DNA from: Candidatus Woesearchaeota archaeon
GTDB lineage: Archaea > Nanobdellota > Nanobdellia > Woesearchaeales > GW2011-AR9
Length of the DNA stretch: 64,000 nucleotides
Direction of reading: 5' to 3'
Assembly (NCBI GenBank): GCA_016181265.1
Contig: JACOZP010000008.1
Coordinates: 20,156-84,155, forward strand
The translations under genes and the position numbers were made by a program. Positions 37,836 through 46,760 of this stretch are shown here, piece after piece (position 1 is the first letter of the stretch; the number at the start of each line of letters is the position of its first letter). The notes below the pieces were generated by a model, which saw only the letters and a program-made list of their open reading frames with translations, was not told the origin of the DNA and ran no database searches.

Positions 37836-39152
37836 CTAATAGTACGTTTGTTCTTCTTCGTCGTCTTTTCTCAATCTGCTAAAGCCGATGATCAAGCCGA
37901 TGATGACTAGTAAGACTACTAGTACAATCAGAGCAATTTCAAGGCCGTTGCGAAGATTGAAATCGGTTGCTTTAGCAGCAGGAGCAGCACCAGCTACATT
38001 TGCTTGCAGAGCAATCGTTTGGACGGTTTCACTGCCTGCTTTAACAGCGACAGATACAGCATGTTGACCAACTGTAGCGTCAGCAGCAGGAGTTACATCC
38101 ACATAGACAACTTTGTTCTGGCCAGGAGCTAGAACAACAAGCATTTCACTTACGGAAGCTGTTGCCCATTCTCCACCAGTAGCAACGTCAAAGGTAAAAG
38201 CTTTGGTCGTTGTTCCTTCGTTGCTGAGTGCAATGCCGTAGGTTGCGGTTTTCCCAGGAGCAACAGTTTGTGATCCAGGGCCAACTGCGAGCAATACTTT
38301 ATCAGATTGCACCATTTCGCTTGCAACAACAGTGATGGACAATGTTTTGGTTGCTGTTTCATACTTGTCGTATTTAGCAGTAACTTTTACATCGTAGACA
38401 CCAGCAGCAGCTGAAGCTGGGATCGGCAAGAACATTTCAGGAACGTCTTTGCGTTCGTCAGCATCAAGTTTTTTAACAACTTCTGTAGCTTTTACGCCCA
38501 GAGCTGGAACTTCAACAGTAACAACAACGTTTTCTTCATCGCGGTCGCCATAATTTTCCAAGACTGGAGTAACTAATAGAGCACGGCCTGCTTTTACGGT
38601 TTCCCCAGGGGAGAAGTAGACATCGTTGATGTCAACAGCATGGCGTGCAGATTCTACGCTGAATACGTAGTTAAGTACAATTTCTTCAGAGTTTCGATCA
38701 AGGACGAAAACACGCAAGGTATTTTCTTCGTTGCTGATGTCTTTAGGAACAGTCAATTCAAGATCAACTGTTTTCTTTGTACCAGCGTTAAGATCGAAGA
38801 CGTGAGATACATCTTCTAAAGACACATAATCAGAGTATTCGTACCCGCTTAGGCGAGCAAGAACTTCAATCTGTTCTGCATCTTGTGCGTCAACAGTAGC
38901 GCCAGCAGCATCTTTAACTTGTGCAGGCATTTTCAATTCAACTTCAATATGTAACTTTTCGCCTTCTTCAACGGATTGAAGAATCAAGTTACCAAACTGA
39001 TCTTTTTCAGCTTCTTCATCATTTACCGTTACGGTGATATCATTTTCAGTCAGGCTACCAAGTGTGCTTTCGCTTACTTTTGCAGCACTAACCATAGAAA
39101 CCAACAGTACGCTGATGACGAAAAAAGCCATTACGTTTAGTAGTTTTCTCAT
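37836..39152 (-). CDS. S-layer-like type I membrane surface protein (beta-sandwich repeats)
   Basis: Signal peptide MRKLLNVMAFFVISVLLVSMVSA. Val/Thr-rich repeated beta-strand modules. C-terminal TM IALIVLVVLLVIIGLIIGF plus a short charged tail. GGAGG SD and strong TATA upstream. Confidence 0.7.
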   Translation of the reverse strand: MRKLLNVMAFFVISVLLVSMVSAAKVSESTLGSLTENDITVTVNDEEAEKDQFGNLILQSVEEGEKLHIEVELKMPAQVKDAAGATVDAQDAEQIEVLARLSGYEYSDYVSLEDVSHVFDLNAGTKKTVDLELTVPKDISNEENTLRVFVLDRNSEEIVLNYVFSVESARHAVDINDVYFSPGETVKAGRALLVTPVLENYGDRDEENVVVTVEVPALGVKATEVVKKLDADERKDVPEMFLPIPASAAAGVYDVKVTAKYDKYETATKTLSITVVASEMVQSDKVLLAVGPGSQTVAPGKTATYGIALSNEGTTTKAFTFDVATGGEWATASVSEMLVVLAPGQNKVVYVDVTPAADATVGQHAVSVAVKAGSETVQTIALQANVAGAAPAAKATDFNLRNGLEIALIVLVVLLVIIGLIIGFSRLRKDDEEEQTYY

Positions 39153-39300: not shown

Positions 39301-41871
39301 TTATTTAAGGATAGTTAACTGACGATAGGCGACGCTATGCAGGGAATCGTTTTTGACGAGAATCTGCACAAGATAGGTTCCGGGAATGGTCTCGGGAGGG
39401 AGGGATAATCCTACGCTAGCCAAAGTCGAACCGTTCTTGGCAACATCAAATTGTCTGGTCGACTGGATAATGCCTAACTCAGGGATCATCACGATGCCAC
39501 GAACATCTTCTGCTTTAAGCAAGGTTTCATTTTCTACCTTGATGAAGACTTGTGTTTGCCAGTTGCCGTTGACTAATTCTTCGGGAGCCAGAGTTACGGA
39601 TTTAATGAAAAAGTCAGCTGAGGCTGGTTCTTCCACGGGCGGAATTATCGGAGGTTGAACTGGCGGAACGACGGGAGGGACGATGTTATTTGTTTCATCA
39701 TTGTCTTGCGGATTAGCGCAGCCAGGATCAGCCATATCGATCAATTTGTCTCCATCATTATCTTTGCCATCAGAACATTGGGTTGTTTGAGGTGGAGGGG
39801 GTGGAGAGGTATCTCCTTTGAGCATGACACTGATCAAGACATCTTCAGAAATAGTAACAAAACCATCGTTGACGGTGAACGTAACGGTATAGAGACCAAC
39901 TTGGTCTTTCGTCGGTTTCCAAGAAAAGCCGCTCTTTGCATATGTAGCTCCATCAGGCATAGGTAAAGCAGCGTAATTCAAGGTATCGTTATCTGCATCG
40001 ATTGCCTCAACAGTAAAAGAGACAGTATCGCCAACGTAGACAATCTGGTCATCTATCGGCTTAAATTGAGGCTTTTGATTTACGTCTTTGATATTGATCA
40101 GAACATTCTTTGTTGTTTTTGCTTTCCCATCATCAGCTTCCAAAATCAGCGTGAATGAACGGCTGGTCTGAGGGTGCTTAACGAATGAATAGAGCGGTTG
40201 GAGTTGAATGGTAAATGTTCCATCATTATTATTGATTATATGGACACCTTGTCCGTTGATCGGGGCAAGATCAGGGAGGATAGGATCGGCAGAGTAGGGT
40301 GTTAAGAGGATCTTATCTCCGTTCTTATCAAAGATGGTAACAGTAAACTGTAAAAGTTTGCCTTCCATTCCAAATTGGGTGTGAAGGCTGCCGATTACGG
40401 GTAGGCTATTTGGATCTACAGGCGGAACAGGAAGGTTTGTCTCGTCATCATCTTCAGGGTTGGTACAGCCAGGATCAGCCATATCGACCAATTTGTCCCC
40501 ATCGTTATCTTTGCCATCAGAACACTGAGACGTAGGCTCGACGGGCTTTTGTTTGACGATGATCTGAACATCTTGACTGGTTTGCGCGAAACCGTCAGAG
40601 ACGGAAAATGTGATGAGATGGCTGCCGAGATCATGGAATTTTGTCTGCCACGTGAAGGCAGTTCCGTCTAGTTTTGATCCGAGAGGTGCGTTTTCCATTG
40701 CATAGGAGAGGACGTCTTCGACATCAGCATCGGTTGCGTATAAGTCAAATGAAACGGTCTCACCAGCATAGACGACAATCTGATCAGAGAACGTGACGAA
40801 AGTCGGTTTGCGATTGACATCATTGACTAAGATAGTCACAACTTTCCAATCGGAGAACATTTTTCCATCGTATGCTTTAAAGCGCAGTTGGAGCGTCTTC
40901 TGAGTTTGAGGGTGCTTGATAAAGTCGTAGTCCGGACTAAAGGTAAATACTCCTGTCTGCGAATCGAAGTGAGCACCTTCTGGAACTAGATTAGGGAATG
41001 GATTATTATCAATAGGAACACCATTTGCGACAAGTGTATGAACGTAATACGTTAATTGATCCTGCTCAGCATCAGTTCCACTGACAACATAATTGATAGT
41101 ATCACTTTCATTGACATGAAGAGCAGGGATGTTATTCATCTGAGGAGCGGTGTTCTTCGGTTCGGGAGGAGGGACATCCGGTTTTTCTTCATCAAGAACA
41201 TAAATCTGGATCGTTTCGCTATCCTCTGCTTGGCCATCGGTAACGGTGAACGTGATAGCATACGTACCAGTCTTAGAAGGGGTCCAGATGAATTTCCCAG
41301 AGCCAGAATTAAGTTTCATATTCGGCTGGAAAGAAATTGCGCCGAAGTAGAGCTTGTCATTATCAGCATCAGTTGCGGAAAGTGTAAATTGCAGCGTCTC
41401 ACCGACAGGAATGTATCGATCGCCGATCGGATTCAAGACAGGGGAATGATTTTGTGGCGCGGGAGGGGGTACTGTTTCTTCTGTTGGGTTGACGTGTAAA
41501 ATAAGCGATTCTACGTCCGAGGAGTTGTAGCTAGTGATCTTCGCTTGAATGGTATAATCTCCGAGAAGAGAGGCAGTATTTAAGGAAAGAGCCTTCGTGT
41601 ACGAATCTTGTGTTAGATTATCGACTTTTAGAAGAGTGTTGATTTTCTGGGAGCCTTTGTACAAGTCGACGACAAGGTTAAAGCTAGGAGCTAGGCTGTC
41701 CGCAGTGATCATGATCTGAGGGATGCTTCCTTGTGTAACAGTTAGTGATTGGGTATTGGCACCAACCCAATATGCGTAAAGGGAGACATTGCCTGCACTT
41801 GCAAAAGGGACTGCTGCAATGAACAGCATCAACGTCAGTACAATTCCAAATAATTTTTGTGTCATATTCAT
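39301..41871 (-). CDS. large secreted adhesin-like protein with cadherin/dystroglycan-type Ig-like repeats and two Cys/Asp-rich inserts
   Basis: Signal peptide. At least 4 repeats of the pattern P..PIGD..V.VGETL.F.V.A.DAD.D.L.Y. Two copies of QCSDGKDNDGDKL(V/I)DMADPGC(T/A)NP.D.DETN. Confidence 0.75.
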   Translation of the reverse strand: MNMTQKLFGIVLTLMLFIAAVPFASAGNVSLYAYWVGANTQSLTVTQGSIPQIMITADSLAPSFNLVVDLYKGSQKINTLLKVDNLTQDSYTKALSLNTASLLGDYTIQAKITSYNSSDVESLILHVNPTEETVPPPAPQNHSPVLNPIGDRYIPVGETLQFTLSATDADNDKLYFGAISFQPNMKLNSGSGKFIWTPSKTGTYAITFTVTDGQAEDSETIQIYVLDEEKPDVPPPEPKNTAPQMNNIPALHVNESDTINYVVSGTDAEQDQLTYYVHTLVANGVPIDNNPFPNLVPEGAHFDSQTGVFTFSPDYDFIKHPQTQKTLQLRFKAYDGKMFSDWKVVTILVNDVNRKPTFVTFSDQIVVYAGETVSFDLYATDADVEDVLSYAMENAPLGSKLDGTAFTWQTKFHDLGSHLITFSVSDGFAQTSQDVQIIVKQKPVEPTSQCSDGKDNDGDKLVDMADPGCTNPEDDDETNLPVPPVDPNSLPVIGSLHTQFGMEGKLLQFTVTIFDKNGDKILLTPYSADPILPDLAPINGQGVHIINNNDGTFTIQLQPLYSFVKHPQTSRSFTLILEADDGKAKTTKNVLINIKDVNQKPQFKPIDDQIVYVGDTVSFTVEAIDADNDTLNYAALPMPDGATYAKSGFSWKPTKDQVGLYTVTFTVNDGFVTISEDVLISVMLKGDTSPPPPPQTTQCSDGKDNDGDKLIDMADPGCANPQDNDETNNIVPPVVPPVQPPIIPPVEEPASADFFIKSVTLAPEELVNGNWQTQVFIKVENETLLKAEDVRGIVMIPELGIIQSTRQFDVAKNGSTLASVGLSLPPETIPGTYLVQILVKNDSLHSVAYRQLTILK
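39716..39780. repeat. intragenic DNA repeat copy A (Cys/Asp-rich insert)
   Basis: GCAGCCAGGATCAGCCATATCGA(T/C)CAATTTGTC(T/C)CCATC(A/G)TTATCTTTGCCATCAGAACA(T/C)TG is shared with 40463-40527. Only a few mismatches. Confidence 0.8.
40463..40527. repeat. intragenic DNA repeat copy B (Cys/Asp-rich insert)
   Basis: See copy A; same orientation, 747 bp apart, both in frame within the 856-aa ORF. Confidence 0.8.
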
Positions 41872-41880
41872 AGTGGCCCC

Positions 41881-43062
41881 CTAATACTCAACACCTGCTT
41901 TTACTGTACCACCAAAAGAGTGAGGATGATCTTGTGAGGGAATGAAAAAATACAACGCATTGATGCTGCCCGTGAAAGCTGTGGCATCACTGAGGGGGAT
42001 GCGAATACCAAAACCGGCATTTGCGGAGACACCAAACTGGGTAGTGATATCTTCTCCTTTCGGTTCAGAGATCGTCTTCGGTCCCAGGAAAGTAGTTCCA
42101 TCAGGAAGAGAAAGACGTGTTGTTCGTTCTTTGTCACCGGATTCGGCACCCCAAAGTGCGTAAAGGCCTGCGACGAGGTCACTGTATACTTGAACATTTC
42201 CGATTTCTGTGAGAGGAATACGAACACCAAGGACCCCGCCGATTCCACCAGTAAGGCCGTCTGCCGTTGTGGAGGTTGTATCTCTCCATGATTTTGTGTT
42301 TCCGTCAGCTAATAATTCCGTACCTAGAGACGTGGATTGACCAGTGACTGCATCTCCATAGAGAAGAATGCCTTCGACTCCGAGGAATAGGTAATCACCA
42401 AGATGTCGTTGGTAGCGTACGCTTGCATTGAATATGGGATCGGTGCCGTCAGGCATATATCGTGCTAATCCACCAAGTGAAAAAGACAGTTCATTGTGGG
42501 GTTTCTGAGAAGGATAACTTCCAGAACCGGAACTACCTGGGCCGCCACTACCTGTTTTGTTTAGACGTTCTAATTCTTGGATACGACGTTGTGCTTCTTC
42601 TAACGCGCGTTGAGTTTCAGGATTGATAACTTTAACTTCCACTTTCTTTTCTACGAAACGATCGACAGGGCGATCAACATATTCTGTGACTCTTTCGACA
42701 TCGAGTTCATAACAGTGATAACTTTTTCCCCATGGACAAAGATTGTCTGGCCCTCTCTCGATAATCACGCCTTCTAGACTTTCAAGACGGCGTGCGTCGT
42801 CTTTGTTAAGGCAAATGCCTATTCCTGGGCCATCTTTGTAATGATCGGTACATTTACTACGAGGAATGCGTGGTCGTGTCACTTTACTCGGACACTCTGG
42901 GGCAGGCGGGCAATAATTGTCTCTACATACTCTTTCTAACTCATCCGGGGGGAGACAAATCTGTCCCTGTGCATTTGGTTGCGGCGGATTAGCACGTGCA
43001 GAAGGAGTTAAAGTTAAGGTCAGTGCGGCAAGGCCATAAGTTAGATATCGTGTAAGGTTCAT
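41881..43062 (-). CDS. secreted protein: Cys-rich N-domain, coiled coil, Gly/Ser linker and OMP-like beta-barrel-type C-terminal region
   Basis: Signal MNLTRYLTYGLAALTLTLTPSARA. The C-terminal ~200 aa show alternating hydrophobic beta-strand periodicity and end in VKAGVEY (aromatic terminus). ATG at 43062 chosen, 2 nt after the upstream stop. Confidence 0.65.
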   Translation of the reverse strand: MNLTRYLTYGLAALTLTLTPSARANPPQPNAQGQICLPPDELERVCRDNYCPPAPECPSKVTRPRIPRSKCTDHYKDGPGIGICLNKDDARRLESLEGVIIERGPDNLCPWGKSYHCYELDVERVTEYVDRPVDRFVEKKVEVKVINPETQRALEEAQRRIQELERLNKTGSGGPGSSGSGSYPSQKPHNELSFSLGGLARYMPDGTDPIFNASVRYQRHLGDYLFLGVEGILLYGDAVTGQSTSLGTELLADGNTKSWRDTTSTTADGLTGGIGGVLGVRIPLTEIGNVQVYSDLVAGLYALWGAESGDKERTTRLSLPDGTTFLGPKTISEPKGEDITTQFGVSANAGFGIRIPLSDATAFTGSINALYFFIPSQDHPHSFGGTVKAGVEY

Positions 43063-43064
43063 GT

Positions 43065-43727
43065 TTATTCCTCGTTGCAAGTCATTATTACAGTGGTTTC
43101 CATTCCTGGTTGAGATGGCTTTAGATCATATGCTGCTCGTACATATACCTCGAAAGCTTCTCTTAGAGGATAATATTCTTCATCGCCGCCCATTAACTGG
43201 AATAAAACATCTATCGGCTCAAGAGGATAAGAAGCATATCTCACGACAATAGTGTGTGGATCTGCTTTGATTCCCAATGCTTCGCTTTCAAATGTATTTC
43301 TACCATAAAGAATTAACCCAGGAGACAAAGAACAGACGTAATCATTAATTATCTCATCAATTCTTCTTTTTCGATCTTCAACACTCCCATACCCCAAAGC
43401 TTCAACCATTCTTGCTTCCATTGATTGAGGTTGTTCATCAGATTCAGGAGGCAATTGCGTTCTTTCTAAATCACGATTAAGACGTTCTAAACGAGTATTT
43501 AATTTCTCCAAAGACCGAGATAATTTTTCTAATTCTTCAATGGAGGTATCTTTAGCAGGATTAGGTTTGTAGAGAGAAGGAGTATCTTTTGGTTCGGGAG
43601 TATACGTTACGGGCTTTGGATCGATAGGTGATAGAGGTTCAGGTTTCGTAGTGGGTACTAGTTCAAGAGCCCCTAAGCCAAGAACCACTGCTGCTGCAAC
43701 TCCGCCAATGACAAATCTTGTGTTCAT
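43065..43727 (-). CDS. membrane-anchored coiled-coil protein, hypothetical
   Basis: N-terminal TM VIGGVAAAVVLGLGAL, Pro-rich spacer, LEKLSRSLEKLNTRLERLNRDLERT coiled coil. First gene of the surface operon. Confidence 0.6.
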   Translation of the reverse strand: MNTRFVIGGVAAAVVLGLGALELVPTTKPEPLSPIDPKPVTYTPEPKDTPSLYKPNPAKDTSIEELEKLSRSLEKLNTRLERLNRDLERTQLPPESDEQPQSMEARMVEALGYGSVEDRKRRIDEIINDYVCSLSPGLILYGRNTFESEALGIKADPHTIVVRYASYPLEPIDVLFQLMGGDEEYYPLREAFEVYVRAAYDLKPSQPGMETTVIMTCNEE

Positions 43728-43822
43728 GTTTATGTTCTACTCCGAAGTAGTTACTTTTCTTCAAAAAAGAGAGGTTTCTATTTAAATGTTTCTCGATTTT
43801 TGTTAGCAAGGAGTAGTTAAAA

Positions 43823-46686: not shown

Positions 46687-46760
46687 GGGATTATAGTTTA
46701 ATGATAAAATTTCAGGCTCCAGACTTGAAGATCCGGGTTTAATTCCCGGTAATCCCACCA
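46687..46760 (+). tRNA. atypical intron-less tRNA-Trp(CCA) with encoded CCA
   Basis: GGGATTA-TA-GTTT-AATGATA-AAAT-T-TCAGG-CTCCAGA-CTTGA-AGAT-CCGGG-TTTAATT-CCCGG-TAATCCC-A-CCA. The cloverleaf is complete, but the D-loop lacks GG and the T-loop is TTTAATT rather than TTCRAAT. Confidence 0.7.

Follow-up and report, generated by a model that had tools for sequence, protein, structure and literature searches.

To our knowledge, monomeric transmembrane β-barrels are confined to diderm bacteria, mitochondria and plastids, in whose outer membranes they are inserted by Omp85/BAM (β-barrel assembly machinery). In OmpX, the protruding sheet, or 'fishing rod', is thought to bind partners. Within the Archaea, an outer membrane has been demonstrated in the crenarchaeon Ignicoccus, and the dominant outer-membrane protein of Ignicoccus hospitalis, Ihomp1 (Imp1227), is very small and α-helical, and forms an oligomeric pore with no β-barrel. 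Here we analysed a stretch of 64,000 nucleotides from a Candidatus Woesearchaeota assembly (GCA_016181265.1, contig JACOZP010000008.1, positions 20,156 to 84,155; hereafter the window), which encodes a 393-amino-acid protein (P0001, hereafter the barrel protein) whose C-terminal domain is predicted to fold as an OmpX/OmpA-like β-barrel. What is new is a known fold, as predicted by modelling, in another domain of life, together with a new architecture and a new operon context; our literature search found no paper on barrels of the outer-membrane protein (OMP) type in DPANN archaea or Woesearchaeota. Such a barrel in a DPANN archaeon implies one of three things, namely, an unrecognised outer lipid layer, BAM-free insertion into another cell, or an OMP fold used outside a bilayer. 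The reading we favour, at roughly even odds (about 0.5), is that of a lipid-embedded barrel which tethers a surface complex and enters a second lipid layer independently of BAM, this layer most likely belonging to a partner or host cell.

The gene and the domain in question are located in the window as follows.

41884..43062, minus strand: coding sequence of the barrel protein (P0001), 393 amino acids, from the open reading frame (ORF) list and translation
41884..42495, minus strand: predicted OmpX/OmpA-like β-barrel domain (hereafter the C-domain), amino acids 190-393 (204 amino acids), from AlphaFold2 (AF2), Foldseek and residue faces

An earlier note on this DNA, made from the sequence alone, had read the C-terminal part of the protein as an OmpA/OmpX-like barrel of 8-10 strands, and had named two findings that would speak against it, namely, a fold of the sandwich or jelly-roll kind, and nearest homologues among ordinary archaeal surface domains. 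Modelling of the isolated C-domain by AF2 (amino acids 183-393, with a 14-sequence alignment, A3) gave a predicted local distance difference test score (pLDDT) of 89.8 and a predicted template modelling score (pTM) of 0.74, with all five models at 86-90, and the full-length AF2 model shows the same strands in this domain at a pLDDT of 75-92. When the model was compared with the PDB using Foldseek, 48-70 matches were obtained at E<1e-3, and all of the 50 listed ones are outer-membrane barrels, including Ail (4e-6), OmpA (8.5e-6) and OmpX (1.9e-5) as well as OpcA and autotransporter β-domains. The template modelling (TM) scores are 0.43/0.50 for OmpA, 0.55 for 1qjp and 0.45/0.58 for NspA, the best target-normalised values being 0.50-0.58. 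A Foldseek search of the BFVD viral library likewise returned phage OMP_b-brl/Opacity proteins (top E 1.2e-7), and all of its matches at E<=0.001 with a descriptive name are outer-membrane barrels. No immunoglobulin (Ig), jelly-roll, sandwich, lipocalin, avidin or fatty-acid-binding protein (FABP) fold is present among the listed Foldseek matches. The barrel proposed earlier is thus supported as a prediction, and neither of the two contrary findings turned up in the Foldseek or homologue searches.

The DSSP assignment of the C-domain model contains nine β elements. Since residues 225-235 and 239-250 are separated by a three-residue gap and both flank the single long strand 256-287, we read them as one kinked strand; the tip 251-255 pairs residue 250 with residue 256, so that 225-235 faces about 271-281. 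Reading the DSSP string with this register logic gives eight strands.

b1: amino acids 190-203
b2: amino acids 206-220
b3: amino acids 225-250, with a kink at 236-238
b4: amino acids 256-287
b5: amino acids 290-318
b6: amino acids 324-356
b7: amino acids 362-373
b8: amino acids 381-392

A reading of the DSSP string as nine strands was rejected, since it requires a wholly polar strand at membrane level and a parallel closure. At the level of prediction, the C-domain is therefore best described as a closed, eight-stranded, antiparallel next-neighbour barrel.

A search of 5.8 billion non-redundant sequences identified 10 orthologues of the barrel protein with 44-92% identity, and a profile search of 1.84 billion representative proteins gave seven matches, all of which belong to the same family or are fragments of its members. 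New from the latter search were one full-length member, two fragments and a pair of distant members, P0015 and P0016, which align end to end at 24-25% identity and keep the whole architecture. As judged from the sequences retrieved, the family is small (about 14 sequences) and restricted to Woesearchaeota-type lineages or contigs. No bacterial relative was found by the profile search of the 1.84 billion representatives or by a wider-alignment profile search of the 5.8-billion non-redundant set, no homologue found in these two collections bears any other annotation, and word-indexed searches using P0015 and the C-domain alignment gave no new relatives. The whole barrel protein has zero matches in Pfam and NCBIfam, and phmmer and profile searches of PDB sequences, in which the whole protein, the C-domain alignment and the alignment of the N-terminal domain served as queries, gave noise only. 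When C- and N-domain members were compared with Pfam at E<=10, the sole signal was a sub-threshold one between P0015 and PF13505 OMP_b-brl of Pfam clan MBB (E 0.0058-0.05, 14 bits, cut-off 28.7). No second copy of the barrel domain was detected by profile in the window or in the fetched orthologous loci. The predicted fold may reflect either very remote homology to bacterial barrels or convergence.

The earlier note had also pointed to alternating hydrophobic and polar strands, and every peptide it quoted is found in the 393-amino-acid translation.

amino acids 18-24: LTPSARA
amino acids 171-182: GSGGPGSSGSGS
amino acids 194-203: FSLGGLARYM
amino acids 211-221: FNASVRYQRHL
amino acids 225-236: LFLGVEGILLYG
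amino acids 275-284: GGVLGVRIPL
amino acids 291-305: QVYSDLVAGLYALWG
amino acids 343-357: FGVSANAGFGIRIPL
amino acids 363-375: FTGSINALYFFIP
amino acids 386-393: TVKAGVEY

By a crude dyad (even/odd) hydrophobicity score, the barrel ORF is not distinct from many other ORFs of the window, and since this score is non-specific, alternation alone is weak evidence. Under a strict stripe criterion (five hydrophobic or Gly residues at every other position, separated by polar ones), the barrel protein has five stripes, all of them in its last 200 amino acids, compared with a window median of 0.68 per 200 amino acids. We also set 56 belt positions by strand parity and compared them across 14 family members. 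These positions are 76-84% hydrophobic in all 14 members and 0-2% charged in 13 of them, and the pattern is kept in P0015 and P0016 at 18-20% identity on the belt positions, while across members the positions in between contain 13-27% Gly and 13-34% charged residues. Taken over the eight segments, one face is 67-87% hydrophobic and about 0-2% charged, and the opposite face is 13-39% Gly and 15-27% charged. The hydrophobic stripes cover residues 192-202, 211-221, 225-235, 270-284, 290-304, 339-357, 363-373 and 383-393, and are 11-19 residues long (15-19 in b4, b5 and b6); the shortest, at 11 residues, are, for tilted strands, about as wide as a bilayer, and a belt of about 10-11 residues per strand is characteristic of small outer-membrane barrels. 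Judging by parity and residue type, we infer that the hydrophobic face points outward. The composition of the C-domain is OMP-like as well (G 14.7%, T 10.3%, K 2.5%). The alternation described earlier is therefore borne out by the strict stripe count and by its conservation across the 14 members.

The C-terminal β-signal claimed in the same note is matched only in part. In bacterial barrels this signal reads polar-x-G-x-x-hydrophobic-x-aromatic, ending on the aromatic residue. The terminal aromatic residue (F or Y in 13 of the 14 members) and the alternating hydrophobic residues (at -2, -4 and -6) are conserved, whereas the conserved Gly lies at -3 (G390) rather than at -5, with conserved Gly also at -8/-9, and one member carries a three-residue extension. 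The C-terminus of P0016 reads GYKFPTR, that is, it has a PTR extension and a non-aromatic end.

In the model, strands 3-6 extend about 13 residues past the belt as a polar four-stranded sheet, whose two halves are encoded as follows.

42256..42351, minus strand: protruding sheet, first half (upper b3 and b4), amino acids 238-269, with tip LADGN at 251-255
42049..42150, minus strand: protruding sheet, second half (upper b5 and b6), amino acids 305-338, with tip LPDGT at 319-323

Neither segment has a hydrophobic face, and both faces of 305-338 are polar or charged. The family consensus of the first tip is ELLPDGNxKSWTD, in which L251, D253, G254, N255 and K257 are invariant in the 11 close members, and that of the second is ERTTxLxLPDGTxFxGPKTISEP, in which R313, T314, T315, P320, D321, G322, G327, P328, K329, T330, I331, E333 and P334 are invariant in the same members. 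Most invariant residues of the C-domain are found in the tips LADGN and LPDGT and in the stretches beside them, and the DG-turn tips of the sheet probably form a binding surface. In P0015 and P0016, the tips carry xAG or xEG in place of DG. Both termini and the short turns (LGDY, GN and LSDAT) are predicted to lie on the side opposite the sheet, and the family alignment places insertions in the short turns on this terminus side. One member, P0010 (L002 660-1928), carries 12 additional residues, GLEDELRSFLGEY, in the b4-b5 turn, a short one on the side of the termini (query amino acids 285-288), and a second insertion between b6 and b7; the members of the family differ in size only in these two turns and in the Gly/Ser-rich linker described below. 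The predicted layout is that of OmpX/Ail with its protruding sheet, enlarged.

In its predicted form, the archaeal barrel resembles the OmpX/Ail barrels and the OmpA/NspA membrane anchors, with no sequence membership in those families. OmpX, Ail and Lom (1qj9, 3qra and 3qrc) give the best Foldseek E-values (4e-6 to 2e-5, probability 1.00) and share with the model eight antiparallel strands, termini and short turns on the same side, and strands that extend past the belt as a polar sheet. However, the archaeal domain is about 50 residues longer, has much longer extensions and no detectable sequence similarity to them, and forms the C-terminal module behind a Cys-rich domain, a helix and a Gly/Ser-rich linker. 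Neither an outer membrane nor BAM is known for the archaeon that encodes it. With the N-terminal transmembrane domain of OmpA and with NspA and Opa, the likeness lies in the use of a small monomeric barrel as a membrane anchor joined to a second domain; in comparison with OmpA, the order is reversed in the archaeal protein, the soluble domain being N-terminal and the barrel C-terminal, and the partner is a disulfide-rich orphan domain instead of the peptidoglycan-binding OmpA_C. Type Va autotransporters (EspP, Hbp, NalP and EstA) share the module order of signal peptide, extracellular domain, helix and C-terminal barrel, but their barrels have 12 strands and about 250-300 amino acids with a helix through the pore, whereas the archaeal barrel, with eight, is too narrow for a helix. 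We rejected an autotransporter of this type on account of the eight strands in 204 amino acids, the 19-residue disordered linker, and TM-scores of 0.2-0.3 to EspP, Hbp and NalP. The likeness to Ihomp1/Imp1227 would be that of an archaeal protein of a second, outer lipid layer.

Ahead of the barrel, the protein is composed of the following modules.

42991..43062, minus strand: signal peptide MNLTRYLTYGLAALTLTLTPSARA, amino acids 1-24, with an A-x-A cleavage motif ahead of NPPQP, read by eye
42688..42990, minus strand: disulfide-rich N-terminal domain (N-domain), amino acids 25-125, from 14-member alignments
42622..42687, minus strand: charged V-E-K/R-V repeat segment, amino acids 126-147, with pLDDT <50 for amino acids 130-147
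42553..42621, minus strand: amphipathic helix, amino acids 148-170, from DSSP of the full-length model
42496..42552, minus strand: flexible Gly/Ser-rich linker GSGGPGSSGSGSYPSQKPH, amino acids 171-189, with pLDDT <50 for amino acids 168-186

The features of the signal peptide (a basic n-region, a hydrophobic core and A-R-A) are kept across the family, with the consensus ...LTLALTPARA|APPQP as read by eye. The N-domain of P0001 contains eight Cys, of which C36, C46, C71, C84, C109 and C117 are invariant in all 14 members, and the motif GPDNLCPWG-SYHC. It has the lowest column entropy in the protein (1.04), a pLDDT of about 75 for amino acids 70-125 in the full-length AF2 model, and zero matches in Pfam and in PDB sequences. 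P0015 (L005 747-1883) and P0016 are without the CPPAPxC cysteine pair, and six Cys remain in them. The segment of V-E-K/R-V repeats, such as VEKKVEVKV in the family and IVEKIVEKTVEKIV in P0015, is probably extended, and could be either a strand open to β-augmentation or a spacer. In the helix, L154, A157, I161 and L164 form a heptad seam, with I161 and L164 invariant and A157 nearly so. Short heptad helices are found both here and in the protein encoded immediately upstream (see below), and this helix is a candidate coiled-coil partner of that protein. The Gly/Ser-rich linker varies in length and sequence and has the highest entropy in the protein (1.63). The signal peptide, Cys-rich domain, helix and linker that the earlier note had read from the translation are all confirmed by sequence, family alignment and the DSSP and pLDDT values.

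The gene is real and under purifying selection. It runs from an ATG at 43062 to a stop codon at 41881-41883 on the minus strand, exactly at the coordinates given earlier, and a GAGGA Shine-Dalgarno-like motif lies 6 nucleotides 5' of the ATG, inside the 3' end of the gene before it. Translation is unlikely to begin at the in-frame TTG at 43080, since every orthologue starts with MN(I/L). Against the orthologue with 92% identity, the ratio of nonsynonymous to synonymous substitution rates (dN/dS) is 0.24 overall, 0.19 in the barrel and 0.20 in the N-domain, and is higher in the linker. The genomic context is archaeal: the window contains the archaeal markers RLI/ABCE1, Trm1 and geranylgeranyl reductase, one orthologous contig encodes ribosomal protein L35Ae, and one orthologue has been deposited at NCBI as Candidatus Woesearchaeota. 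The guanine-plus-cytosine (GC) content of the gene matches that of its surroundings.

The gene order around the barrel gene is a Trp/Tyr-type permease, a 220-amino-acid protein, the barrel protein, an 856-amino-acid Ig-repeat protein, a surface-layer (S-layer)-like protein, a small ORF and a geranylgeranyl reductase. The neighbours that bear on its function are as follows.

43779..43786, minus strand: TATA-like box TTTAAATA, about 55 nucleotides 5' of the ATG of the 220-amino-acid gene, in the 95-nucleotide gap after the permease gene
43065..43727, minus strand: upstream partner, 220 amino acids, with an N-terminal transmembrane anchor, a Pro-rich spacer, a coiled coil of 3.5 heptads (amino acids 61-91) and a C-terminal globular domain
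39301..41871, minus strand: downstream partner, 856 amino acids, with a signal peptide, Big_9/He_PIG/PKD Ig-like repeats and two acidic double-disulfide repeats (Pfam and NCBIfam)
37836..39152, minus strand: S-layer-like protein, 438 amino acids, with NPCBM_assoc/CARDB-like domains and a C-terminal transmembrane helix, and with its own intergenic region upstream

The same gene order is found in the orthologous contigs, and a core of four genes, encoding the small protein, the barrel protein, the giant Ig/cadherin-repeat protein and the NPCBM_assoc S-layer-like protein, is kept even around P0015, which is 24% identical. All family sequences except one lie in such a cluster. The TAA of the 220-amino-acid gene (43067-43065) lies 2 nucleotides before the barrel ATG, a spacing that, together with the GAGGA motif, suggests translational coupling. 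The upstream gene is present in L001, L002/L003, L005 and L008, and overlaps the barrel gene by 4 nucleotides in L001, L005 and L008. Its product belongs to an orphan family with no Pfam match, and its C-terminal domain carries the conserved motif PLEP-D-LF-LMGGD. Downstream, the 856-amino-acid gene starts 9 nucleotides after the stop of the barrel gene and is directly downstream in every locus that reaches that far. The product contains two NF033662 'acidic double-disulfide repeat' copies (CSDGKDNDGDKL-DMADPGC-NP-D-DE), each between Big_9/He_PIG/PKD blocks. It ends in a CARDB/NPCBM_assoc-like domain and has no membrane anchor, so that some other protein must retain it at the cell surface. The position of the 438-amino-acid gene is conserved in L001, L002 and L005. 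Its product matches PF10633 (E 7e-12) and scores 89 bits with NF033506 (PACE-CTERM 'putative S-layer protein'), below the cut-off of 110, and it is likely to be an S-layer subunit of the archaeon. Its transmembrane helix is followed by an acidic tail, RKDDEEEQTYY. As for transcription, the TTTAAATA box is a candidate promoter (archaeal TATA box) for a three-gene transcript.

In the reading we favour, the gene would be native to a Woesearchaeota (DPANN) archaeon of groundwater, and its product would be a surface protein of three modules, exported by Sec, with its C-terminal 204 residues folded as a monomeric, eight-stranded amphipathic barrel of the OmpX/Ail/OmpA/NspA type, the hydrophobic face serving as a lipid-facing belt and the Gly/polar face as the lumen. 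Hung from the flexible Gly/Ser-rich linker, the short conserved helix and the disulfide-bonded N-domain, this barrel would be the lipid-embedded foot of a surface complex encoded by the same operon, and the membrane-anchored coiled-coil protein and the Ig-repeat adhesin/S-layer would provide the docking site for the helix and/or the N-domain. Two cells would then be tethered by BAM-free insertion of the barrel into a second lipid layer, which would most likely be that of a partner or host. The choice of membrane follows from sidedness. Since the protein has a signal peptide and 6-8 conserved Cys, the N-domain should be outside the cytoplasmic membrane, and since the termini of the barrel are on the same side as the N-domain, a barrel in lipid would have entered from the extracellular face and would expose its sheet on the far side. 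In the cell's own cytoplasmic membrane, the conserved polar sheet would sit in the cytoplasm, which is hard to rationalise; this membrane is therefore disfavoured, which points to either a second lipid layer of the same cell or the membrane of another cell. The latter is favoured by the lifestyle of cultured DPANN episymbionts, by the flexible linker and helix, and by the helical anchor of the neighbouring S-layer protein. Cultured DPANN archaea attach to hosts, and their single membrane is covered by an S-layer (PMC11329633; bioRxiv 10.1101/2021.04.28.441871). A bolder form of this reading, in which DPANN cells would carry 'harpoons', that is, self-inserting, BAM-independent barrels tethered by a coiled-coil stalk and linker and buried in the host membrane with the invariant sheet on the far side, strikes us as doubtful; if true, it would add a new way for cells to attach to one another, and these would be the first transmembrane β-barrels known to function in the archaeal domain. 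In any case, the family offers a compact, expressible 211-amino-acid domain and a set of defined operon partners (a coiled-coil anchor, a giant adhesin and an S-layer protein) for the study of attachment in ultra-small archaea.

Several observations weigh against a lipid-embedded tether. The fold is predicted from a 14-sequence alignment, with barrel closure, strand count and outward face all inferred, and the Foldseek TM-scores are moderate (0.43-0.58) with large reported root-mean-square deviations (rmsd). No sequence family reaches its threshold, and hhalign of the C-domain profile against E. coli OmpX gave nothing (probability 0.6%). In L006, the upstream coiled-coil gene is absent and the barrel gene directly follows the permease gene. 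The sequence is present in groundwater and soil DNA metagenomes only, and zero RNA runs contain it. Finally, to enter a host membrane from outside, the barrel would have to take its large, polar sheet of four strands through the bilayer, and no insertase is known for this.

This last difficulty would vanish if the barrel were not in a bilayer at all, since insertion machinery is then unnecessary. It could instead be an S-layer-associated or oligomeric module whose belt is buried in protein contacts, as in a ring of barrels or an S-layer socket, or a holder of lipids or hydrophobic ligands like the PopA-type, lipid-trapping superfamilies of eight-stranded barrels. Oligomeric eight-stranded barrels that trap lipid have been described (PMC12228718), the conserved helix could drive oligomerisation, and the barrel gene is tightly linked to the S-layer-like and Ig-repeat genes. 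However, the belt is continuous around all eight strands, has a bilayer-like width (11 residues in the shortest) and is free of interrupting charges in 13 of the 14 members, and the structures that match best are monomeric, serving as membrane anchors or adhesins. We consider a location outside the bilayer unlikely.

The second lipid layer could also belong to the archaeon itself, in a lineage that is diderm or has an outer lipid layer. The barrel would then tie this layer to the cell much as OmpA does with the domain order reversed, with the N-domain, the helix and the 220-amino-acid protein in a periplasm-like space and the sheet directed outward. Double membranes are present in a few archaea, namely, Ignicoccus and Altiarchaeales. 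The predicted topology agrees with that of bacterial OMPs (termini and short turns cis, long conserved extensions trans), the terminal aromatic residue is kept in 13 of the 14 members, and a periplasm could be bridged by the coiled-coil partner with its N-terminal anchor. A possible distal OMP relative (of PopA) in Altiarchaeales has also been mentioned in passing (PMC12228718). Yet the adjacent S-layer-like protein has a C-terminal transmembrane helix, as is usual in single-membrane archaea, and the DPANN archaea cultured so far have an S-layer over one membrane (PMC11329633; bioRxiv 10.1101/2021.04.28.441871). Moreover, no barrel-like paralogue was found in the window or the fetched loci, and no insertase is known. 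An outer membrane of its own therefore seems decidedly unlikely to us.

The shallowness of the alignment (14 sequences), the moderate TM-scores with high rmsd and the ordinary crude alternation score among the window ORFs would also be expected if AF2 had forced an ordinary soluble β-rich surface domain into an OMP-like shape, in which case the hydrophobic face could in principle be a core. Such an over-prediction is improbable, since confidence is high in five models and two independent runs, and none of the 50 listed PDB matches is a lipocalin, avidin, FABP, Ig or jelly-roll fold, although these are abundant in the PDB. In addition, the non-hydrophobic face is Gly-rich rather than Lys/Glu-rich, with 2.5% Lys in the domain, and in b4, b5 and b6 the stripes extend over 15-19 residues. 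That the archaeon recently acquired a bacterial OMP gene by horizontal transfer and has no adapted role for it, as suggested by the otherwise bacterial fold class and the weak OMP_b-brl signal of P0015, is barely credible given the lack of a bacterial relative in the representative and non-redundant searches, a GC content matching the surroundings, the fusion to domains specific to the archaeal clade, operon synteny down to 24% identity and a dN/dS of about 0.2.

Orthologues of the upstream 220-amino-acid gene are located at 7327-8004 in L001, 154-831 in L008, 1908-2666 in L003 and 154-750 in L005. ARAGORN called a single tRNA in the 64-kb window, a tRNA-Trp(CCA) at 46687-46760 on the plus strand.

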